This document shows, piece by piece, positions 4,615-38,901 of a stretch of 64,000 nt of DNA. The notes under the pieces are model-generated. The model saw only the letters and a program-made list of their open reading frames with translations, made no database searches and was not told the origin of the DNA. Position 1 is the first letter of the stretch; the number at the start of each line of letters is the position of its first letter. The DNA is from Escherichia phage vB_EcoM_Ozark: sequence record NC_054927.1; one strand, written 5' to 3'. A program made the position numbers and the translations under genes.

Positions 4615-4982
4615 TTAAATTTAATGGCTTGAAGGAGACTAATAATTCTTAAACGGCTTCTTTCATCTTTAACTGTAAAAGAAAGAGGGTCGCCAGATTT
4701 CATAGTAATAGTGCATTCAAAATCAAAATCTTCTGTGACTTCTTCGAAGAAGTCAAATTCTTCATCATAAATTAGAACACTACTTTGCAGACTGTGGAGA
4801 GTTTTTCCAGCATTTCCAGATGCTGTACCAATCATTGTAACATTATGACCTTTCATATCTTCAACGATAAATTCGTTTGTCAATATTACAGCATTAATAG
4901 AACTATTCCTATTACTAACAGAAAGTAGAAATTTCTGTTCTTCACCTTCACGAATACGATATTTCTTACCAATTTTAAACAT
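4611..4982 (-). CDS. hypothetical protein (123 aa)
   Basis: ORF, ATGA overlap with downstream gene. Confidence 0.45.
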   Translation of the reverse strand: MFKIGKKYRIREGEEQKFLLSVSNRNSSINAVILTNEFIVEDMKGHNVTMIGTASGNAGKTLHSLQSSVLIYDEEFDFFEEVTEDFDFECTITMKSGDPLSFTVKDERSRLRIISLLQAIKFK

Positions 4983-4984
4983 AA

Positions 4985-5161
4985 TTACCCTTTAAGTAAG
5001 TCGTAAAAACCACCATTCACATGCTTAGGAGCAGAAGGCCGACGAGTAGACAGACGATGACATTTAGGGCAAACATCATTTTCTCGTTCAGAAATCTTTT
5101 TAATTTTTTCATATTCATGCCCGCAATCTTCGGATTGGCATTTATAATCATACATTGGCAT
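4985..5161 (-). CDS. small zinc-ribbon protein (58 aa, two CxxC pairs), not in supplied ORF track
   Basis: translated by hand: MPMYDYKCQSEDCGHEYEKIKKISERENDVCPKCHRLSTRRPSAPKHVNGGFYDLLKG. Confidence 0.4.
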   Translation of the reverse strand: MPMYDYKCQSEDCGHEYEKIKKISERENDVCPKCHRLSTRRPSAPKHVNGGFYDLLKG

Positions 5162-5163
5162 AA

Positions 5164-5589
5164 TTATTCCTTAAAATGTGCTTTCAACATCTGATACAAG
5201 GACCATGCATGTTCATTATTTTCAATAGTAACTTTCATGACCGGGAATTCTGTGAAATCTTCTATTTGTTCTTGCTCTTTCTCTTCCTGCTCTTGCTCTT
5301 CGGCTGCCTGGTATGGATTTTCCACTTCATCAAAGAACACAGCTTCGCTCGTTGAAAGCCAGATAAAATCTTCATCCAAAATATCTTTACCAGAAGATAA
5401 CGCCAATTTTCCACTAGATGTCACAAGTTTAGTAGGACGACCAAGATAGTCAATATCTGTAACTCTAAAAGGTTCCATACCAAGACGACGTGCATAAATT
5501 CCGTTTTCAGTATGGTCCTTGATAAAATCTTCTTGAGCTTGTTTATTTTTAAATTGATACCATTTATTAACTTCAAATTTAATAGCCAT
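5164..5589 (-). CDS. goF: goF (comC-alpha)-like acidic protein (141 aa)
   Basis: 141 aa, acidic [12 protein letters not shown] tract; size and position as T4 goF. Confidence 0.45.
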
Positions 5590-5804
5590 TAATAAGTTTC
5601 CTTCCAGTAAGTTGTGCCATCTTCAGTAATTTCACGAAATACACCGTAAATTGGTTGTTTATCACCAACCTTTTCATACACATAAACCGAAGTCAAGTGA
5701 GTAAACTTAACGGTATGTTCTTTTTGAACTACTACCAAATCTGGATCGAATAGTACATCTTCAAATTCGTCATTAGTGCAATTCTGAACAATTTTACGTT
5801 TCAT
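5589..5804 (-). CDS. cef-like small protein (71 aa)
   Basis: 71-aa ORF at the position of T4 cef; assignment by size and position only. Confidence 0.35.
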
Positions 5805-28859: not shown

Positions 28860-29423
28860 TTACCATTCCAATGCTAGTTTTTTGAGTTGTTTCTGTTCTT
28901 TTACGTTCTTAGTCACTTCTTTCAAAAAATCATCCGTGACTAAACCTTTTAGTTCTTTTAATACTAAAGGTAGTTTTCCATTTTTAGTAAGAATTGATTT
29001 ATAGTTAATTGCATCATTTGTATTAACTTGATACCGCTTAGCAAGTAACTTAATAATCAATACTTCAGTAGAATCTTCGACCAGTTTTGCCCATTTACCA
29101 TATCTTTTACCCCGAGGAACAGCAGCCATCAGGTAATTAAAATGGGCTTCATCGCTTAAACCTGATCCAATTAAATTCATAGCATATACAGCTGGCATGC
29201 ATTCAGGAAATTGTGATAATGCATTCTCAACCATGTATTTTGAATAATCTTTTTGAGCAATAGAGCATTTAGTTTTATTATTAATAGCTCCAATTATTTC
29301 AAAAAACTCATTTTCAGCTTTTTCTTTAAAAGAATCAGCAGCAGATTGGACAGCTGTCCAATCTTTTGAATACCAAGCAACTTGATGCTCGTTTAATTGA
29401 ATATCATCTTCAAATAAGCTCAT
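28860..29423 (-). CDS. 62: clamp loader small subunit, gene 62 (187 aa)
   Basis: size and position. Confidence 0.85.
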
Positions 29424-29424
29424 A

Positions 29425-30399
29425 TCACTTCCACTGCATTTCGCATGCCAATTGAATGAAAAGATATGCTAAATGTAATTCCGTATTAGCCGCAATTCCG
29501 TGATACTGGTTATTTTCACCAACAATTTCATACATACGAATAATACTTTGTGGAGTTACGCGTGTATAGATTTCTTCGGCAAGTTTACCAACGAACCACG
29601 AATAATCAGCCGCATATTTTGGTGCTAAAGCTCTGAGTTGTTTAACATCTTTATTTTTGAGAGACTCAAGAACATCATCAATAGCACCACGATCGTTAGT
29701 AACCAGTGATAAAATACCAGCATCCAAAACACCTTTAGACGAATAACTATCGAGCTCGCCAATAGTTTTACGAAAATCAGGAAAATTCTTTTTAACCAAA
29801 GCTGCTACAACTTTCATATCAGCTATAGCAATTCCTTCATGCTTACAGATTTCAGTCAATCGACGAATCATCTGCTTCATCATTTCAATTTTATCTTCAT
29901 CGGTTGGTTGACCGAACGTAATAACTCGGCAGCGTGACTGAAGCGGTTTAATAATACCATCAATATTGTTAGCAGTAATAATAATACTACAGTTTGAACT
30001 ATAAGCTTCCATAAAGGAACGAAGATGTCGCTGAGACTCTGCTAGCCCTGAGCGGTCAAATTCATCAATAACAATTACTTTTTGACGACCATCAAATGAA
30101 GCTGCACTAGCAAAATTAGTCAAAGGACCGCGAACAAAATCAATTTTACAATCTGACCCATTCACAAACATCATATCAGCATTTACATCATGACACAATG
30201 CTTTCGCTACGGTTGTTTTACCTGTTCCTGGAGAAGGAGAATGAAGAATAATATGTGGAATTTTACCTTTACTTGTAATAGATTTAAAGGTTTCTTTATC
30301 AAAGGCGGGAAGAATACATTCATCGATAGTAGATGGACGATATTTCTGTTCAAGAATGTGTTCTTTTTCATTTACGGTAATCATAATTTCCTCATTCAA
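29425..30399 (-). CDS. 44: clamp loader AAA+ subunit, gene 44 (324 aa)
   Basis: Walker [15 protein letters not shown] Walker B. Confidence 0.95.
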
Positions 30400-30435: not shown

Positions 30436-31122
30436 TTAAAAATCGTGGGTAGAATCAGCTTCAAGAGCTACTACATAATTCGCGTGTTCACCTTCAAATT
30501 TAGCAGCACCTTGTTTACCTTTTGCCCAGAGCAGAAGTTTATAATTTCCTGGTTGCATTTTCATATTTGCCATATTGATAATGAAATTAAATGTATTTTC
30601 ACCATCATAATCACCAAGAGTCAAAGAATATTTAACACGGGTCAGAGCAGAATCTTCTACTTTATTAAAACCGTTAATTACGATTTTACCTTCTTTTACC
30701 GTGATAGCAATTGTATCAATTTGCAGACCACGAGATACACGCAACAGTTGTTGAAGGTCTTCAGCTTTAATTTCAGTAACAACAGATGCTACCGGGAATG
30801 GAATTGGTTTATTAGGAGCAACTACTGTACTCGGATCGGCTGCTGGCCAAAAAATTGTTGAGCGGGCATCAGCAATTTTAATATTTCCATCTTCTGACTG
30901 GGAAATTTCTGCATCATCATTAACTAGAGACAGAATACCGAGAAAACCGTTCAAATCGTAAATTGCTACATCAAAATCAATAACGTCAGAAATATTTGCT
31001 TCCGCATAAGTTGTACCATTAACTGCACGAGTCATAATAAATTGACCGGATTTAAGCATAATACCAGAGTTAATAGTAGCGAAATTTTTAAGCAGAGCAG
31101 TAGTATCTTTAGACAGTTTCAT
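30436..31122 (-). CDS. 45: sliding clamp, gene 45 (228 aa)
   Basis: 228 aa; position. Confidence 0.9.
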   Translation of the reverse strand: MKLSKDTTALLKNFATINSGIMLKSGQFIMTRAVNGTTYAEANISDVIDFDVAIYDLNGFLGILSLVNDDAEISQSEDGNIKIADARSTIFWPAADPSTVVAPNKPIPFPVASVVTEIKAEDLQQLLRVSRGLQIDTIAITVKEGKIVINGFNKVEDSALTRVKYSLTLGDYDGENTFNFIINMANMKMQPGNYKLLLWAKGKQGAAKFEGEHANYVVALEADSTHDF

Positions 31123-31177: not shown

Positions 31178-31567
31178 TTAACGATTAAAATCAGCCGCAA
31201 TTGTTTCAGCAACAATTTGAGCAGCAACAATTAGACGTTCATCTGCATTACCACAATAATCATCTTCAAGACGTTCACCGCATGAAGTCATAATAAATTT
31301 AGCACCGGCGTTTAGGGATTCTGCAGTATGTTTGCGCATTAGTTCAATCCATTTATTACTTACTTCACGATCGATAGCTTCATAATACGCATGACGAGCA
31401 GGTGCAGATTTAATTTTGTTCTGAATAACTTCCATTGCGTTATCAGAAAGAGACAAAACCCATGCTCGACGAATTTTATTTTGGTTTTGTGGATTTGATT
31501 CAGAACGCACGTGTTTTGGCTGAATATCTTTTACATCAACAGTATAATTCACAGTAATTTTAGTCAT
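31178..31567 (-). CDS. rpbA: RNA polymerase-binding protein RpbA (129 aa)
   Basis: 129 aa upstream of gene 45. Confidence 0.7.
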
Positions 31568-31576
31568 AATACACCT

Positions 31577-31768
31577 TTAGTCATAATAATCAGTAACAGT
31601 CCAAGCTTCATTTCTGTTGGACATTATTTTCGTATATTCTGATTTAAATGCATTCTTAAGCATAGATTCAGTAACTATATGCTCTTCATTAGAAAAATTA
31701 TTTCTCAGAATATATCGTTTTATTTCAGGAATAGTTAATAGATGCTGTCCAGTTGAATATTCTGCCAC
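31577..31768 (-). CDS. hypothetical protein (63 aa)
   Basis: ORF. Confidence 0.4.
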   Translation of the reverse strand: MAEYSTGQHLLTIPEIKRYILRNNFSNEEHIVTESMLKNAFKSEYTKIMSNRNEAWTVTDYYD

Positions 31769-31819
31769 AGTTCCTCCGTATAAATATGTTTATCACTCGC
31801 TGTATCAAAAGGATATGTT

Positions 31820-32536
31820 ATGAATTATAAACTAATTTATGAAAAGTTAATCTCTAATGCTAAATCTCGAAAACTTGATTGCTATACTGAATCTCATCAC
31901 ATTATACCACGCTGTTTAAATGGAAGTGATGATGCTTCAAACTTAGTAGATTTAACACCAGAAGAGCACTATGTAGCTCATCAACTTTTAGTAAAAATTT
32001 ATCCTTCTGAACCAAAATTAGTCTATGCTGCTAATATGATGACAGTTTCTACGAAATACGCTAAACGCAACAATAAAACTTTCGGTTGGATTCGTCGTAA
32101 ACTCTGGGAAATAGAAAAGAACAAAGAATTCTCCCAGGAGACACGAAAGAAAATGTCTGATGCAGTAGCTAATAAAGCAAGACTAACTTGTCCTCATTGC
32201 GGTAAGTCTGGATTAAGCGGAAATATGAATCGTTGGCATTTTGATAACTGCCCAAATCACCCTAATCCTAAAGTTAGACCACCAATGTCTAAAGAACACA
32301 GAAATAATATCTCAAACGGGCTTAAAGCAATCGTTCTTGAAGAAACATCCTGCGAATTCTGCGGAATGATAGGCAAGAAATGCGTTATCGCAGCGCATAG
32401 AAATTTCTGCAAGAAAAATCCAAATGGACGCAAGAAAACTGAAAAGACTGGTACTTGCGTCCATTGCGGTAAAGTTACCACTTTCGGAAATTTATCAAGG
32501 TGGCATAATGATAACTGTAAATATAAACCTAGCTAA
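31820..32536 (+). CDS. free-standing HNH endonuclease with three C-terminal Cys/His zinc-knuckle repeats (238 aa), plus strand
   Basis: ESHHIIPR...N...EEHYVAH motif; repeats CPHCGK..RWHFDNC, CEFCG..AAHRNFC, CVHCGK..RWHNDNC. Confidence 0.7.
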   Translation: MNYKLIYEKLISNAKSRKLDCYTESHHIIPRCLNGSDDASNLVDLTPEEHYVAHQLLVKIYPSEPKLVYAANMMTVSTKYAKRNNKTFGWIRRKLWEIEKNKEFSQETRKKMSDAVANKARLTCPHCGKSGLSGNMNRWHFDNCPNHPNPKVRPPMSKEHRNNISNGLKAIVLEETSCEFCGMIGKKCVIAAHRNFCKKNPNGRKKTEKTGTCVHCGKVTTFGNLSRWHNDNCKYKPS

Positions 32537-34217
32537 TCTTAGCTAAACTAAATCTACCAACTTTTTCCATTTGAATATGCTGACCATATTCTTGTGGGTC
32601 ATGGTCTTTATGTGAAATTATGAAGAAGTTGGTATCCTTCAAACCATCTAAAATTTTAGCTACATTTTTAATACCTTCAGCATCAAATGCACCGTCATAC
32701 ACTTCATCAAGAAATAAACAACTTATTTTAACACCTGAAACTTTTTCAGCAATATCACGCCAAGTAAATAAAAGAGCAATATCAATTCGTGCTTTTTCAC
32801 CTTGACTAAATGAAGCATAACTAAAATCTTCACGACCACGAGATTTAATTGTCTCATTAAATTCTTCATCTAATGTAAACACATAATCCGCTTCCATTAT
32901 TTTAAGATAATGGTTAATTTGCTTATTAAATAATGGAATGTACTTTTTAATAATAGCACCTTTAATACCAGAATCTTTGAGCATATCAGTCAAAATTCCT
33001 CGGTGGTATTTTTCCATTACTAAATTAGTTTTTGTCTTAACAATTTTATCAAGTTCTTCTTGAAGCAGTGCTATTTCATCAGCATGGTCAATAAACTCAG
33101 AAGATGCTTTTTCTATAGCTGCTTTAACTTTTTTGGCTTTATCTACCGTCGTGATTAGAGATTGCTTTTTATTGCGAATATCATTTGCCAACGACTGCTG
33201 AGTTTTAATATTATCTCGGTATTCATCAACAAGAACTTTTAAATTATCACGGTGTGTTGAAAGCTGTTCAAACGAATGCGTACATTCAGAAACTTTATCT
33301 TTAATTTTAGAAACAACTTTATCACCGGAACTTAATTGTGACAGGCAGGTTGGACATAATCCACCTTCGTGATACATATTAATGACTTTATTGTACGAGT
33401 CAATTTTTGATTTAATTAAAACTGCTTCTTGACCGATTTTATTAAATGCATCAGTCGGGTCTTCATCTAAAACAATATTAACTAATCTTTCATTAGCTTC
33501 TTCTATTTCCGATTTTAGCGTTCTAGCTTCTTTTGCCAAATCATCATACATATTTTGTAGACGAGTAAGGTTGTCACCAGTTAATTTTTTCTGGCGTTCA
33601 ACGTTATCATTATATATTTTAATTTGTTGGATAATACTATCTTTTTTAACATCAAGCACTTGGTTTTGTGAATTTAATTCACGTATTAGTGCTTTATTAA
33701 GCTTATCCATTTCAGCTAATGTTCCTACCTCAAGCAGGTCTTCCACAAGCTTTCTTCGCGCAGGGGTCGACAAACCCATGAAAGGGGTATACCCTGCTGT
33801 ACCAAGGACAACAATCTGCTTGAAACTGGCATATGACATTCCGATAAGCTGTTCAAATTCTGCTTGGAAATCTTTACTGCTGGCAGATTCATTAAGACGT
33901 GTACCGTTAACGGTGATTTCGAAAACGTTCGGTTTTTGTCCTCTTTTGATATAGTACTTTTTCTCATCATATTCCATCCACAGTTCAACTAAAAGTTCTT
34001 TCTTATTTGTGCTGTTTATTAATTGACCTTTCTTTACATCACGAAATGGCTTTCCAAAAAGCCCAAATGTGATGGCTTCTAACATAGTAGACTTACCACC
34101 GCCATTTCGTCCAGTGATAAGAGTTTTTTGAACCTTATCTAATTGAATGTCAATAGGATTTCCACCTACTGACATTATATTTTGATACCTAACTCGGTTT
34201 AGTTTAAAATTCTTCAC
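32529..34217 (-). CDS. 46: recombination nuclease subunit (Rad50/SbcC-like), gene 46, 562 aa
   Basis: Walker A GRNGGGKST, coiled coil, signature and D-loop. Confidence 0.95.
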   Translation of the reverse strand: MKNFKLNRVRYQNIMSVGGNPIDIQLDKVQKTLITGRNGGGKSTMLEAITFGLFGKPFRDVKKGQLINSTNKKELLVELWMEYDEKKYYIKRGQKPNVFEITVNGTRLNESASSKDFQAEFEQLIGMSYASFKQIVVLGTAGYTPFMGLSTPARRKLVEDLLEVGTLAEMDKLNKALIRELNSQNQVLDVKKDSIIQQIKIYNDNVERQKKLTGDNLTRLQNMYDDLAKEARTLKSEIEEANERLVNIVLDEDPTDAFNKIGQEAVLIKSKIDSYNKVINMYHEGGLCPTCLSQLSSGDKVVSKIKDKVSECTHSFEQLSTHRDNLKVLVDEYRDNIKTQQSLANDIRNKKQSLITTVDKAKKVKAAIEKASSEFIDHADEIALLQEELDKIVKTKTNLVMEKYHRGILTDMLKDSGIKGAIIKKYIPLFNKQINHYLKIMEADYVFTLDEEFNETIKSRGREDFSYASFSQGEKARIDIALLFTWRDIAEKVSGVKISCLFLDEVYDGAFDAEGIKNVAKILDGLKDTNFFIISHKDHDPQEYGQHIQMEKVGRFSLAKIS

Positions 34218-34429: not shown

Positions 34430-34664
34430 CCTTAATACAAGATACAGCCATATCTCGCAATGATTTAGGTGTGTCATTATCTAAAATGTTGAAGTTAAAA
34501 GATACAGCCCAATCTGTACAGACCGTAACTTTTTTAATACAATTATCTTCAACTTCTAGTGGTTCAAACCAGTATTCAATAATTTCTTTATGACCAATAT
34601 CATCTTTTACTTCACATTCAAAATGCTGACTCATCATAACATTTTTAAATTCATCAAAAGTCAT
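34401..34664 (-). CDS. hypothetical protein (87 aa)
   Basis: ATGA overlap with gene 47 stop. Confidence 0.45.
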   Translation of the reverse strand: MTFDEFKNVMMSQHFECEVKDDIGHKEIIEYWFEPLEVEDNCIKKVTVCTDWAVSFNFNILDNDTPKSLRDMAVSCIKDAYCEVFDI

Positions 34665-35680
34665 TGTGTTGCCTCTACATATAACTGATTTGCATATTGA
34701 ATAAGTGCTTCACGATCAGAATCAGTGATGTCTGGAATTGCATTAATATACTCTTCCATCAATGTCTGAAGCGATTGAACTTCAACTTCTTCACTGTCAT
34801 CTGACTCGACAGAGTTATCAATCTTTGACACAACTCGTAATGAATGCACAACTTTCTCTAGTTCAGATTCGAACTTCGTCAGATTTTTGTCTACTTCAGT
34901 TACTATAACACGTACTGATAGATTTGTAAAATCTTTATAGTCAATTTTTCCTTTGAATGGATAATGAATTCTACGATGCCAGGTAGTATTGTTTGGAATA
35001 AATTCCATTCGTTCTGTTTCTGTGTCAAACATCCAGAACCCACGAGGGTCATTCTCGTCACCTGCAGTTAGTGTCCATGGTGTCCCAATATATCTGACGT
35101 TTGCAGCCTCAGAAATAGTATGGAAGTGACCAGACCACACTTCTTTATAAGTCTTAAGGAAATCAGGTTCAAGACCATGAGATTTCATTCCTTTATAAAA
35201 ATAAAATCCGTTCAGTTCCCAGTGACCAACACAAAAAGAAGCAGATGAAGTTTTAATATGTTCAAGAATTTCACCAGTATTTTCTTCGCACATCCAAGGA
35301 ATTAAATCAATCAAACATCCGTCAAAATCTACTGTAGTAGGCTTATCATATACTTTAACATTAGGATATTTAGCCAAAAGCTCAGTAGAAGCATTTGGAG
35401 TTAAAGTATTTTTAAAGTGCATATCATGGTTTCCTACAATAGTATGTAGTGTAATACCAGCATCATCAAGCATTTGAACTATTTCACGAGCGAACTCCAT
35501 AGTTTTATGCGTGATTGCTTTTCGCACATCAAAAATATCGCCGTATTGAATCCATGTAGTAATTCCATTTTTCTTAGAATATTCTATTGCTTGTTTAATT
35601 CCATCCAACTGAATGGATTGAACCCACTCATCATCAGCTTTAACGCCTAAATGCCAATCACCTAAATTTAAAATTTTCAT
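34661..35680 (-). CDS. 47: recombination nuclease subunit (Mre11/SbcD-like), gene 47, 339 aa
   Basis: metallophosphatase motifs DWHLG, GNHD. Confidence 0.95.
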   Translation of the reverse strand: MKILNLGDWHLGVKADDEWVQSIQLDGIKQAIEYSKKNGITTWIQYGDIFDVRKAITHKTMEFAREIVQMLDDAGITLHTIVGNHDMHFKNTLTPNASTELLAKYPNVKVYDKPTTVDFDGCLIDLIPWMCEENTGEILEHIKTSSASFCVGHWELNGFYFYKGMKSHGLEPDFLKTYKEVWSGHFHTISEAANVRYIGTPWTLTAGDENDPRGFWMFDTETERMEFIPNNTTWHRRIHYPFKGKIDYKDFTNLSVRVIVTEVDKNLTKFESELEKVVHSLRVVSKIDNSVESDDSEEVEVQSLQTLMEEYINAIPDITDSDREALIQYANQLYVEATQ

Positions 35681-35840: not shown

Positions 35841-35858
35841 AAAGGGCCGAAGCCCTTT
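35841..35858 (-). terminator. GC stem-loop with UUCG loop overlapping alpha-gt stop
   Basis: AAAGGGC-UUCG-GCCCUUU; near-identical 30-nt module at 4316-4348. Confidence 0.5.
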
Positions 35859-37059
35859 ATTTTGTAATAATGTCAAACTGTTCTTTAAAGCAGAAGCTTG
35901 AATCTTGATGCTGATACAAAAATTCATAAGCTTTTTCGCGTTCGCGGTCATAAAGAGTTCGGTCAGATGACAGTTCTTTAATACGTTCAAATGTTGATTC
36001 CATGTCATTTTCATCAAACCAAATGATACCGCTATCATGCGAGGTCAAAGGAGTATTATCAACACGGAATTTTAAATTTTCGCCAGTAGATTTCCAAAAT
36101 ACCGGAATTGTTCCACATGCACCAAGCTCGAGATGAGTATATTCTAAAGAACGTTGTAGATATTTTTTATCCAACTTACTCAACTGATAACCAAAACCGG
36201 ATTTACTCATACGTTCAAGCATTTCGCTATTTACATAACGGTCAAGAATTTGCGTTGGCAAATTAGGAGCAATTTTAATTTGGTCTACTTGATGAAGACG
36301 ATAATACTCGTATGGAATTCCTTTTTCTTTAATAGGAATGAACGCTGGAGAACGTTCCAGACCTTCCATAATAGTACTTAGTCCTGCAGGTTTAAGATGT
36401 TTTTCATGAAAATCAAACATCTGATAAAAACCTTTCCATGTAGTCGTACGACCAATCCAACGGTTGATATTCATGTTAATTTCAGAAACATCTTTCCAGT
36501 AGGTTGACCGAACCTTCGCAATATCCATAGGAGGCTGAAAGTTATATACTGTCGGTGCTTCTTCAATATCATCAAACAGAGAAACTGTTTCAGGATACCA
36601 TTCTTTCATCAGAACTTTATTAAAATCACCATTATCAGAATGGCTAAAAATAACATCAGCTCGACGAACAGTTTCTTCTAATCCCAAATTTCGGCGCAAA
36701 GAAAGAGAAGAATGGTCATGTTGATAAACTACAACACGAACAGAAGGTTTAATGTTATCAATAATTTTTTTATAGTTATTAATAGTGTCTTCTTCAACTG
36801 AAGTAGCAGGAACTGAATTTATAATTAGAATATCACAATCATTTACCAGTTTAAGTGTTTTATCGTATTCTTTTGCCAATAAAACCGGAATTGAAAATGA
36901 TTTATAATCATGTGCACAGTTACGAGTAAATGATTTATCTTTAGCATAAACCAAAGTTACTTCATGACCATTTTTAATAAACCAATCACGTTGCTCAAGA
37001 GAAAATTTAGTTACACCGCAACCTTCAAGACCTCGAGCCATAAAAATACATACTTTCAT
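35857..37059 (-). CDS. agt: DNA alpha-glucosyltransferase (400 aa)
   Basis: 400 aa, MKVCIFMARGLEGCGVTKF start as recalled for T4 alpha-gt. Confidence 0.9.
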   Translation of the reverse strand: MKVCIFMARGLEGCGVTKFSLEQRDWFIKNGHEVTLVYAKDKSFTRNCAHDYKSFSIPVLLAKEYDKTLKLVNDCDILIINSVPATSVEEDTINNYKKIIDNIKPSVRVVVYQHDHSSLSLRRNLGLEETVRRADVIFSHSDNGDFNKVLMKEWYPETVSLFDDIEEAPTVYNFQPPMDIAKVRSTYWKDVSEINMNINRWIGRTTTWKGFYQMFDFHEKHLKPAGLSTIMEGLERSPAFIPIKEKGIPYEYYRLHQVDQIKIAPNLPTQILDRYVNSEMLERMSKSGFGYQLSKLDKKYLQRSLEYTHLELGACGTIPVFWKSTGENLKFRVDNTPLTSHDSGIIWFDENDMESTFERIKELSSDRTLYDREREKAYEFLYQHQDSSFCFKEQFDIITK

Positions 37060-37083
37060 TTAATATCCTCTTTGTTTTGGTTT

Positions 37084-37108
37084 ATTTTACCAAAAATTTA
37101 TAAAGCAA
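37084..37108 (-). promoter_or_regulatory. MotA-box middle promoter upstream of alpha-gt
   Basis: fwd taaagcaa 37101-37108, -10 TAAAAT. Confidence 0.5.
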
Positions 37109-37110
37109 TA

Positions 37111-37128
37111 TAGGAGCCGAAGCTCCTA
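37111..37128 (-). terminator. GC stem-loop with UUCG loop
   Basis: UAGGAGC-UUCG-GCUCCUA. Confidence 0.45.
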
Positions 37129-37302
37129 TCCACATAATACGCCATACAGAGGCTCATTAGAACTTTTAAATTTTATGCGCTTATATGTTATAGTTCCTTC
37201 TGCTTTAGCTTTATCATGAGACTCTTTAAAGCGTCTCATCATTTCCTCTTTAGAGGAACGAATTTTATTATAATCTATTTCAGAAGTCTGGGTGTTCATC
37301 TT

Positions 37303-37509
37303 TCACATTTGCCACCATTTTTTGACTTGATAAGAATCAACCCACACTTTCATATTAGGGTCTGCTCTTACAATAGGAGGATTAACTTCTTTAATTGAAC
37401 TATCATGGTATTCTTTTTCAGAAATTTTCACGCAAAGATGACCATTCAAAGATTCAGTAAATCCTGCATTAATTTTAAGACGCTTGAATTTTACGTGTGT
37501 AAGCATCAA
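37303..37509 (-). CDS. hypothetical protein (68 aa)
   Basis: ORF. Confidence 0.4.
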   Translation of the reverse strand: MMLTHVKFKRLKINAGFTESLNGHLCVKISEKEYHDSSIKEVNPPIVRADPNMKVWVDSYQVKKWWQM

Positions 37510-37792
37510 TCATATCCTCAATTTGCGATCTAGTAGTCTTCCAAAGAATACTGATGAGTTCATCGTTATATGGCTGTTTTAGAATATCCCGACTTTTCTT
37601 GATAGCATATTCGTATTGAGCAAAATTATTATTTTCAGCTGCGATCTGAGCGTGCTTATAAAGACGATTCAGTTCGCGTTTGTTTTTAGACAATAACTTA
37701 TTTGCTTTTCTTTCTGCTTCAAGACGGTTCTTTTCTTCAATAGAAGAAATAAGCTTTTCCACTTCATCATTAATTTCGGGTTTATCAGTCAT
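37475..37792 (-). CDS. hypothetical protein (105 aa)
   Basis: ORF. Confidence 0.4.
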   Translation of the reverse strand: MTDKPEINDEVEKLISSIEEKNRLEAERKANKLLSKNKRELNRLYKHAQIAAENNNFAQYEYAIKKSRDILKQPYNDELISILWKTTRSQIEDMIDAYTRKIQAS

Positions 37793-37793
37793 A

Positions 37794-38012
37794 TTATTTC
37801 TCTAATATAAAATAAAAATCATCATCTGTTAAATGATACCGATAGTTTAATTCTACACCATTAGATTTAAAAGCGGTATCATACGGATTTTCTGGATCAA
37901 TATCAATGTCAAGAGCTAAAACTTCCCTGAGATACATTTTAAGTAAATAGGGAATAGCTTCAACTTCAGGTATTTCTTCCAAGAATCCGGAGAGGTTAAT
38001 CGTTAGCCTCAT
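37794..38012 (-). CDS. hypothetical protein (72 aa)
   Basis: ORF. Confidence 0.4.
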
Positions 38013-38553
38013 ATAAAAAATCCAAACTAGGAGAATCGTCTACAACACTTTTCTTTTCAGCCCCCGGTGTTCTATAGGTTGATTCTTCGTAATGCGTCAT
38101 TTTATCGTAGATGTCTTGAATAAAAGTTTCATCTACTAACGCAACCATATCGTCGTCACGACTGTCATAGACATTGTGAACGAAGTAACTATATTTCTTT
38201 GCAACTTCCTTACGTTCTTTTTTAATACGTTGGACGAATGCATTAAAACAAGCTTGAGTTATATATGCATGTGGGTTTTTATATTTCGTTTCATCAAAAT
38301 TATGAAGCCCCTTAATAGAAGCTTCTATACCATCTGCAATCATTTCTTGTTTCCAAGACTGGGTGTATCCTGAAAAGTTGAAACGTTTAGATAAGCCTTC
38401 TGCAATAAGCATAATGGCTAATCCGATAGTATCATTCTGACGAACTACTTTATTTGGGTCTTTATTATTTGCTAATTCTGTTTTCCAATCAATAATAGCT
38501 TGTAAAAGCTCTTTATTGTTTACGTAATTATATTTAGGCTTAGTTTCTGACAT
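37996..38553 (-). CDS. 55: late sigma factor gp55 (185 aa)
   Basis: start set to ATG 38553 ([20 protein letters not shown]; AGAGGTGA RBS); the track start 38559 is a GTG. Confidence 0.9.
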
Positions 38554-38631
38554 TTTCACCTCTTAGCTCAATTCATAGATCTATTATATCATAATATTTG
38601 AAGATCTATCTTAAAGCATAGAGGATATCAG

Positions 38632-38901
38632 TTATCTAAGTAAACAGTATGCTTGGAACACTTTCTCCATCATCTTTTTAAATTCATGAATATCTATATA
38701 ATGACTAGTTAGATCAGCATGATATAAAAAGTCTAAAAACTTTTCATGTGTACTAACATATTCACTTTCATTTAATTCAGAAACATGGCTTTCCCAATAT
38801 CCAACACCAGTCTTATTTGGGAAAAATGAAATTTTCATGTATTGGTCAACATAGAAAATGCCATAATTTTCAATAGTAATAGAAATATTAATAAATTTCA
38901 T
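38632..38901 (-). CDS. hypothetical protein (89 aa)
   Basis: ORF. Confidence 0.4.
   Translation of the reverse strand: MKFINISITIENYGIFYVDQYMKISFFPNKTGVGYWESHVSELNESEYVSTHEKFLDFLYHADLTSHYIDIHEFKKMMEKVFQAYCLLR

Follow-up and report, generated by a model that had tools for sequence, protein, structure and literature searches.

To our knowledge, targets have been mapped for only two of the five Mob proteins of phage T4. MobE nicks the nrdB gene of T2 about 120 nt inside this neighbouring gene, and genomes that carry mobE are immune by virtue of polymorphisms in nrdB (PMC2790892). Free-standing homing-endonuclease genes (HEGs) of the GIY-YIG class adjoin a conserved gene, cut inside that neighbour when it belongs to a HEG-less phage, and co-convert the flanks (PMC2988022). 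The locus considered here lies in Escherichia phage vB_EcoM_Ozark (NC_054927.1), in a stretch of 64,000 nucleotides that we refer to as the window. An open reading frame (ORF) on its plus strand, adjacent to gene 46, is in all probability a free-standing HEG of the Mob family, and we call it the HEG in what follows.

The gene, its neighbours and its distribution

The window is the replication and recombination block of a Tequatrovirus (T4-like phage), with genes on the minus strand. Among its 47 ORFs of at least 150 aa the HEG alone is on the plus strand, the remaining 46 being on the minus strand, which bears out an earlier note on this DNA that described it as the sole large plus-strand gene in a minus-strand block. 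It is intergenic and free-standing, between 45.2 and 46 and outside any intron:

28860-29423, minus strand: gene 62
29425-30399, minus strand: gene 44
30436-31122, minus strand: gene 45
31178-31567, minus strand: rpbA
31577-31768, minus strand: gene 45.2, left neighbour of the HEG, with a start codon that is now GTG (M-A-E-Y...)
31820..32536, plus strand: HEG ORF, ATG start, 238 aa plus stop; free-standing HNH gene of the Mob family
32529..32536: overlap of HEG and gene 46, 8 nt, both 3' ends, tail-to-tail
32530-32545: imperfect palindrome TAGCTAA-TC-TTAGCTA, which includes the stop codon of the HEG and two bases of that of gene 46
32529..34217, minus strand: gene 46, Rad50/SbcC-like recombination nuclease subunit; neighbour of the HEG and its presumed target
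between 46 and 47, minus strand: 46.1 and 46.2
34661-35680, minus strand: gene 47
between 47 and a-gt, minus strand: 47.1
35857-37059, minus strand: a-gt

Two details of the arrangement differ from what the earlier note had stated. The immediate left neighbour is 45.2 (31577-31768) rather than rpbA, and the overlap at 32529-32536 is with the stop end of gene 46, not with its start: since gene 46 is on the minus strand, with its start at 34217 and its stop end at 32529, the 8 shared nucleotides are 3' ends that converge. We considered the palindrome as a bidirectional terminator and rejected it, its hairpin stability being no better than that of shuffled sequences (z = 0.78). A search against Rfam gave no family at its gathering score; the sole match, to RAGATH-8 (21.5 bits against 86.7), is sub-threshold and chance-like, and does not indicate an intron.

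Upstream of the ORF there are two putative expression signals:

31779..31786, plus strand: T4 late-promoter consensus box (TATAAATA), 41 nt before the ATG of the HEG
31809..31813, plus strand: Shine-Dalgarno-like AAGGA, 6 nt before the ATG

The window has three copies of TATAAATA against 10.9 expected, and the copy at 31779-31786 is the single one on the plus strand. The box recurs 41-53 nt upstream of the ORF in RB32, MHG19, F2 and L022, the leaders being otherwise diverged, and AAGGA is kept in the leaders of MHG19, F2 and L022; leaders of the Klebsiella and Enterobacter orthologues have TAAATA only. The match to the consensus thus predicts a late promoter for the HEG. A sigma-70 promoter scan of 31400-32900 gave sites not above those in shuffled sequences, and no intrinsic terminator was found in the same interval. 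With no terminator at the junction, late transcription of the HEG would continue antisense into gene 46, while gene 46 transcripts of the early or middle period would cross the HEG antisense. A MotA-box-like match lies antisense within the ORF (32304-32329) in the window and in RB32. We do not take it for a replacement MotA-type promoter, as it is without counterpart in the MHG19, L022, Klebsiella and Enterobacter orthologues and may plausibly be due to chance.

The gene was already known, the HEG protein being 99.6% identical to RB32 ORF054w, which has the same neighbours and has been annotated since 2006; RB51 ORF057 is the same gene at the same site. In RB32 and RB51 it is annotated as 'putative site-specific intron-like DNA endonuclease, similar to mobB'. 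RB32 has been counted with two 'mob-like HNH' genes (Petrov et al. 2010; PMC2993671, Table 5), of which the HEG is presumably one. No experimental work on the HEG or its orthologues was found in the T4 mobile-element review (PMC2988022), the MobE paper (PMC2790892), the 2023 phage HEG survey (PMC10448857) or a full-text literature search.

Presence of the gene is polymorphic. Megablast matches the region, at the Tequatrovirus level, in 651 phage records, and in 58 of these the match extends over at least 80% of the region; the protein is encoded at 95% identity or more by 58 records, and the ORF DNA is matched by 57 records plus Ac3. An orthologue is carried by eight of 55 Dhakavirus-like records. 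The possibility raised in the earlier note, of a syntenic gene in all T4-like phages without presence/absence polymorphism, therefore fails at both levels. Diverged orthologues are found in other phages, all in the same convergent position against gene 46:

Yersinia phage MHG19: 63% protein identity
Escherichia phage F2: 58% protein identity
IME281 (here L022, Dhakavirus-like): 64% protein identity
Klebsiella phage Squirrel_ER27: 42% protein identity
Enterobacter phage EC-F1: 44% protein identity

Identity ranges from 42 to 71% over the wider set of orthologues, and for each diverged orthologue there are closely related phages in which the site is empty (L013 for F2; L023, L024, L030 and L037 for L022). 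A bacterial origin, or a copy in an E. coli prophage, was rejected on the basis of zero matches in 5,426 complete genomes.

Catalytic core and C-terminal modules of the protein

The HEG protein falls into phrog_655 'homing endonuclease' (E = 8.6e-69), which is also the best PHROG of T4 MobE and of MobB, and 2304 database proteins match it at E <= 0.001. The BLASTP comparison with the mob family that the earlier note had proposed gives 35% identity to T4 MobE over the full length (E = 3e-34) and 44% to T4 MobB over residues 1-110 (E = 6e-30), with no similarity to MobB by BLASTP beyond them. The RB32 label 'similar to mobB' is thus half right.

31889..31981, plus strand: HNH (beta-beta-alpha-metal) catalytic core, residues 24-54 (E24, H26, H27, N41, H50, H54)

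The HNH domain is N-terminal (residues 1-100), with the core pattern E24-x-H26-H27-IIP-x-C-x-x-G-x-D-x-x-x-N41...H50...H54. The catalytic motif recognised in the earlier note is indeed present, and its six residues are invariant in both an 11-sequence and a 120-sequence alignment. A profile built from the latter aligns the core with the HNH motif of EcoKMcrA (E = 6e-4), and also with those of Cas8-HNH and a group II intron maturase, while residues 19-104 align with the IscB HNH region in NCBIfam (E = 3.7e-5). The Pfam HNH model (PF01844) scores the HEG protein at 16.9 bits, under the gathering cut-off of 21.4, and T4 MobE, at 24.6 bits, clears it. Among the copies in the window, RB32 and RB51 dN/dS is 0.05-0.10, which indicates that the ORF is maintained by purifying selection. 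The nuclease activity of the protein and its target site are both predictions.

The C-terminal half consists of helices and cysteine-histidine modules:

32126..32170, plus strand: NUMOD3-like helix, residues 103-117, FSQETRKKMSDAVAN; modelled helix 106-117
32189..32251, plus strand: predicted CCHC finger 1 (C124, C127, H140, C144); modelled beta-hairpin 121-132, helix 133-140
32351..32410, plus strand: predicted CCHC finger 2, a variant (C178, C181, H193, C197); modelled strands 175-186, helix 187-195
32456..32518, plus strand: predicted CCHC finger 3 (C213, C216, H229, C233); aligns with the MobE C-terminus

For the first of these, Pfam NUMOD3 (PF07460) gives 12.6 bits and does not reach the gathering cut-off of 20.4, which is passed by many homologues and by MobE; in the alignment its counterpart is the first NUMOD3 repeat of T4 MobE (46 bits). 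A second C-terminal helix (residues 158-170) lies between fingers 1 and 2.

The earlier note had described three C-terminal zinc-knuckle repeats of the pattern C.HCGK...RWH.DNC. Three Cys2-His-Cys modules are present; the pattern, however, fits fingers 1 and 3 only, finger 2 being a degenerate form (CEFCGM...AAHRNFC) whose H193 is invariant in the 11-sequence alignment. Nor are the modules knuckles of the retroviral type. In these the CCHC spacing is CX2CX4HX4C, and the spacings here are, in order, CX2CX12HX3C, CX2CX11HX3C and CX2CX12HX3C, so that the CX2CX11-12HX3C ligand spacing rules out a retroviral-type knuckle. In an AlphaFold2 model from the 120-sequence alignment (mean pLDDT 95.1) a beta-hairpin leads into a helix in every finger, a topology like that of beta-beta-alpha zinc fingers, and we describe the CCHC modules as predicted zinc fingers. 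Searches with the fold of the whole model gave no significant match, and the finger module matched no zinc-finger family in Pfam or NCBIfam at threshold, only generic zinc-ribbon models below it. Finger 1 is conserved among the site-specific orthologues. The four ligands of finger 3 are at least 90% conserved over the 120 homologues; the wider family conserves this finger only, and not fingers 1 and 2. The C-terminal half would read DNA through its NUMOD3-like helices and three fingers.

The insertion site and the divergent tract of gene 46

T4 lacks the gene at this site, as the earlier note had said, the start of 45.2 and the stop of gene 46 being separated by 55 bp. Aligning the window to T4 and other T4-like genomes, which the note had proposed as a way of defining the insertion point, locates the end of homology at 31761 (the 45.2 start codon) and its resumption at about 32546-32549, within the end of gene 46:

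31762..32548: segment that replaces the T4 46/45.2 spacer of about 55 bp (alignment to T4)
32537..32747, minus strand: divergent tract, comprising the final ~70 codons of gene 46, which encode the Walker B, D-loop and H-loop region, with the new tail ...GRFSLAKIS*

Precise empty sites are found in T4, L009-L014, L013 and L023/24/30/37, and in the empty L023, L024, L030 and L037 the stop of gene 46 and the start of 45.2 share the sequence ATGA. The spacer of all six HEG-less Tequatrovirus loci examined holds a MotA-type middle-promoter consensus, TGCTTTA-N11-TATAAT, which is missing from the insertion allele in the window. Because the homology break falls inside the end of gene 46, gp46 terminates in ...GRFSLAKIS* and not in ...GRFTVMV*. 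In HEG-less loci, across genera, the C-terminus is QMKKVGRFT[VI]M[VE]* (27 of the 30 examined), and all HEG-carrying alleles but one depart from it; the L022 allele carries the HEG and has a near-unchanged QMKKVGRFTIME. RB51 and RB68 have a junction variant in which the HEG ends in ...NDNCKHKH and gp46 in ...GRFSVATIN*.

The alteration of gene 46 extends well beyond its last codons. Compared with five HEG-less Tequatroviruses, the window shows 0-4 mismatches per 100 nt over most of 5 kb, and 22-35 per 100 nt in 32600-32699 and 8-18 in 32700-32799; against RB32, which carries the HEG, it shows 1-3 per 100 nt across the tract. When L022 is compared with its relatives, and F2 with L013, the last 200-300 nt of gene 46 have 25-37 mismatches per 100 nt. 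In all three clades the tract is about 210-280 bp long, against a background of 0-5 mismatches per 100 nt, and the peak is one-sided, with no mismatch excess on the 45.2 side. In the window its left edge is sharp, at about 32747, immediately following TTTACWTGGCGTGATATTGCT, a fully conserved block coding for FTWRDIA. Values of dS and dN are 0.52 and 0.129 in the tract, compared with 0.127 and 0.008 in the rest of gene 46, and 18 of the 25 amino-acid differences between this gp46 and that of T4 are within the last 90 residues. Identities to the tract in BLAST are bimodally distributed (58 records at 95% or more, two at 90-95% and 461 at 80-90%), and HEG and tract occur together in 57 of the 58 records. 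Such a HEG-linked tract is a signature of co-conversion or target immunity, and with the membership in phrog_655 it agrees with the earlier note's reading of a homing-endonuclease insertion in opposite orientation between conserved genes.

Between HEG-carrying clades the tracts are 70-73% alike, no closer than in any two genera, and a recent common donor is therefore rejected. Divergence here could also partly reflect a general hypervariability of the 3' part of gene 46, since T4 and L012, neither of which has the HEG, share 79% identity in the tract and 98% in the body of the gene.

The one record in which tract and HEG are separated is KMB22 (vB-Eco-KMB22). Its junction is empty and T4-like, gene 46 is T4-like over its final ~65 nt, and despite the empty site it carries HEG-type alleles from about 32595 to 32805. 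The patch is as expected from a break inside gene 46, repair from a HEG donor and early resolution, the analogous products in MobE crosses being mobE+ I-TevIII- progeny (PMC2790892), although it could be the result of an ordinary double crossover.

Proposed homing at gene 46 and comparison with known systems

We consider it quite likely that the ORF is a Mob (HNH) homing-endonuclease gene acting at gene 46 in the following manner. The HEG would be transcribed late, from its own TATAAATA promoter and on the strand opposite to its early and middle neighbours. The N-terminal HNH domain would be the nuclease active site, and the DNA would be read by three fingers and one or two NUMOD3-like helices, arranged as 'beads-on-a-string'. 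During co-infection the enzyme would, as MobE does, nick or cut the 3' region of gene 46 in an empty-site relative, and repair by recombination from the HEG genome would copy in the HEG and, with it, the adjacent 3' end of gene 46. The carrier would be self-immune through this substituted 3' end with its different C-terminal tail. By analogy with MobE, SegG and SegF it is fairly probable that the HEG is currently active and has its target in the gene 46 3' end; as for the position of the cut, we lean slightly towards one 60-250 bp inside gene 46, in the tract 32595-32805, over one at the insertion point.

A cut at the insertion point would resemble classical intron homing. The same enzyme would then have a recognition and cleavage site that spans this point, and the tract would be co-converted donor DNA only, which seems to us the less probable arrangement, albeit one to be taken seriously. 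The 12 codons with which gene 46 ends (QMKKVGRFTVM[VE]*) are highly conserved in nucleotide sequence among HEG-less phages from several genera and altered in nearly every allele with the HEG, and the junction itself is destroyed by the insertion, be it the Dhakavirus-like ATGA overlap or the T4 spacer. These points speak for a recognition site located there. However, KMB22 bears its HEG-type patch deeper in gene 46 next to a T4-like junction, the L022 allele retains QMKKVGRFTIME* nearly intact, and the one-sided tract of ~210-280 bp in three clades fits a cut at the far edge of the tract; MobE and SegG, the closest studied relatives, also cut at a distance (PMC2790892; PMC2988022).

One may also consider that the gene is not mobile at all, i.e. 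that it is an old, vertically inherited resident, often deleted and kept for another role such as competitor exclusion or the provision of transcription signals. Orthologue identities of 42-71% are roughly in step with the divergence of the host-phage backbones, which argues for long residence at a single site. Some regulatory entanglement is also possible, since the insertion removes the T4-type middle promoter for 45.2/rpbA/45, and there is the antisense MotA-box-like match at 32304-32329. Nevertheless, we regard immobility as improbable: simple deletion would leave neither a sharply bounded linked tract, 5-10-fold more diverged, in three clades, nor empty sites that are perfectly clean, with the middle promoter or the ATGA overlap intact. 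Moreover, between F2 and the window the HEG is 58% identical and gp46 82%, whereas the HNH domains of F2 and L022 are 85% identical on backbones that are just 63% identical, and these contrasts point to lateral movement. Orthologues do not share the antisense promoter-like match, and competitor exclusion would be a consequence of homing rather than an alternative to it. It is more improbable still, indeed very much so, that nuclease activity has been lost and that the protein acts through its zinc fingers only, as a sequence-specific DNA-binding or regulatory factor. The sub-threshold Pfam HNH score could be read in this way, and some homing endonucleases, such as I-TevI, do moonlight as repressors (PMC2988022). 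Yet every catalytic and metal-ligand position of the HNH motif is intact and shows no variation among the 120 homologues, purifying selection is strong across the whole ORF, and a tract that looks co-converted implies breakage of DNA.

A broader reading, which we offer tentatively and with somewhat less than even confidence, is that of an old, genus-spanning parasite of gene 46 that nicks the Walker B/D-loop/H-loop region and makes the C-terminal ATPase lobe of gp46 a hotspot, its finger array being an uncurated module exchanged with NUMOD3. The nick would be ~60-250 bp from the insertion point, and repeated invasions and immunity substitutions would drive recombination and hypervariability. 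The module would be the triple CX2CX11-12HX3C beta-beta-alpha array, and the exchange would have occurred within the Mob family.

The element is an ordinary, selfish one, already annotated in RB32 and about 57 other T4-like records, and the comparative details are modest additions that do not amount to a new kind of system. These additions are the cross-genus orthologues at the same site, the one-sided tract, the KMB22 patch, the three-finger array and the late-promoter box. Practical value is limited: existing annotation is confirmed and the 'similar to mobB' label corrected toward MobE. The analysis does yield a testable prediction, that a hitherto uncharacterised Mob endonuclease cuts the 3' end of gene 46, and natural substrates are at hand in T4 (empty, of the predicted sensitive type), KMB22 (empty, with a HEG-type tract) and RB32 (occupied). 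Since few Mob targets have been mapped, a HEG/target pair with a three-finger array could interest engineers of HNH nickases. The HEG would also account for the mosaic C-terminal ~90 residues of gp46 in phage-therapy isolates that are otherwise near-identical.

Among known systems, RB32 ORF054w differs from the HEG by point differences only. I-HmuI, a nickase, and I-TevIII resemble the HEG protein in having an HNH domain followed by an extended modular DNA-binding region; they are intron-encoded, whereas the HEG is not inside an intron, and PDB searches with the HEG protein gave no sequence match to I-HmuI. The gene 46 tract and the patterns in KMB22 match the outline of the free-standing GIY-YIG HEGs, which, unlike the HEG, belong to an unrelated catalytic family and are experimentally proven double-strand cutters. 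MobB resembles the HEG protein in its N-terminal HNH domain only, and the best full-length relative in T4 is MobE. Like the HEG protein, MobE has an N-terminal MNY...E-x-HH...N...H...H domain followed by a NUMOD3 helix, as well as a C-terminal CxHCxK...RWHxDxCK finger. However, it has four NUMOD3 repeats and one finger, compared with one or two NUMOD3-like helices and three fingers in the HEG protein, and its NUMOD3 repeats are found at the positions of fingers 1 and 2. Whereas mobE is co-oriented with its neighbours and has no promoter of its own and an internal terminator (PMC2790892), the HEG converges on gene 46 and carries a putative late-promoter box of its own. Both genes are free-standing and adjoin a conserved essential gene, mobE being located between nrdA and nrdB, and the presumed targets are nrdB for MobE and gene 46 for the HEG. 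Just as genomes with mobE have a polymorphic neighbour in nrdB (PMC2790892), those with the HEG have one in gene 46.

Expression across the 45.2/46 junction

In HEG-less Tequatrovirus loci the spacer between gene 46 and 45.2 (positions 1448-1502 of the T4 locus, L003) includes, directly upstream of 45.2, a middle promoter of the MotA-type consensus, TGCTTTA-N11-TATAAT, and this promoter is kept in all six such loci. The allele carrying the Mob-family HNH homing-endonuclease gene (HEG; allele at window 31762-32548) is devoid of this T4-type spacer promoter and, with the promoter lost, expression of 45.2, rpbA and 45 would have to differ between HEG-carrying and HEG-less phages. In the HEG carrier F2, a MotA-type middle-promoter box is retained between the HEG and 45.2. 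The HEG ORF itself contains one MotA-box-like match:

window 32304-32329, minus strand: TGCTTTA-N13-TATTAT, antisense within the HEG ORF

This might act as a middle promoter, embedded in the ORF, that serves 45.2, rpbA and 45; among HEG orthologues the match is not conserved, and it is plausibly there by chance.

Around position 4680 of the HEG-less Dhakavirus-like loci (L023, L024, L030 and L037) the gene 46 stop overlaps the 45.2 start in an ATGA, an arrangement that suggests translational coupling in these phages, and in the HEG-carrying, Dhakavirus-like IME281 (L022) the HEG insertion places the same stop and start 771 bp apart.

As a separate observation, the late-promoter octamer TATAAATA is rarer than expected, with 3 copies against 10.9 +/- 3.1 in shuffled sequences, a depletion that concerns the early/middle gene block and was counted over the whole window.

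Mosaicism at the 3' end of gene 46

In phage vB-Eco-KMB22 (L040, OR539217.1; 2487-2800) the 45.2/46 site is empty and the end of gene 46 is T4-like, yet the gene bears a HEG-linked tract of the type found at window 32595-32805; we read this tract as a natural patch of conversion that lacks the HEG. When T4 is compared with L012 and L014, all of them HEG-less Tequatroviruses, the body of gene 46 is 98% identical versus 79% for the last ~250 nt; the 3' end is a mosaic hotspot even in the absence of the HEG. In the F2-like phage L013 (IMG/VR 2974739009; ~4660-4750) the site is empty, and gp46 nevertheless ends in an extended tail (...GRFTVMTVS*) similar to that of HEG-carrying F2 (...GRFTVMKAS*), the usual tail being ...TVM[VE]*. 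This extension may be the footprint of a lost HEG.

Endonuclease genes at other sites

F2 and EC-F1 have nuclease genes on either side of gene 46, those directly upstream of it being:

F2 (L005) 4889-5711: MobD-like homing-endonuclease gene
EC-F1 (L007) 4886-5416: "HNH endonuclease motif protein"

In Yersinia phage vB_YenM_P8 (PP693301.1), a HEG at 84754-85350 is 76% identical at the DNA level to the IME281 orthologue over the latter's first ~600 nt and adjoins the topoisomerase II medium-subunit gene; judged by this identity and position, a close relative of the 45.2/46 HEG lineage occupies a different site there.

In T4, a-gt is followed immediately by mobB, an HNH homing-endonuclease gene (T4 37885-38679). 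In the corresponding part of the window (37060-38560), only small ORFs lie between a-gt (35857-37059) and a 187-aa ORF that we take to be gene 55 (37996-38559), and the mobB site therefore appears empty in the window, where the 45.2/46 site is occupied.
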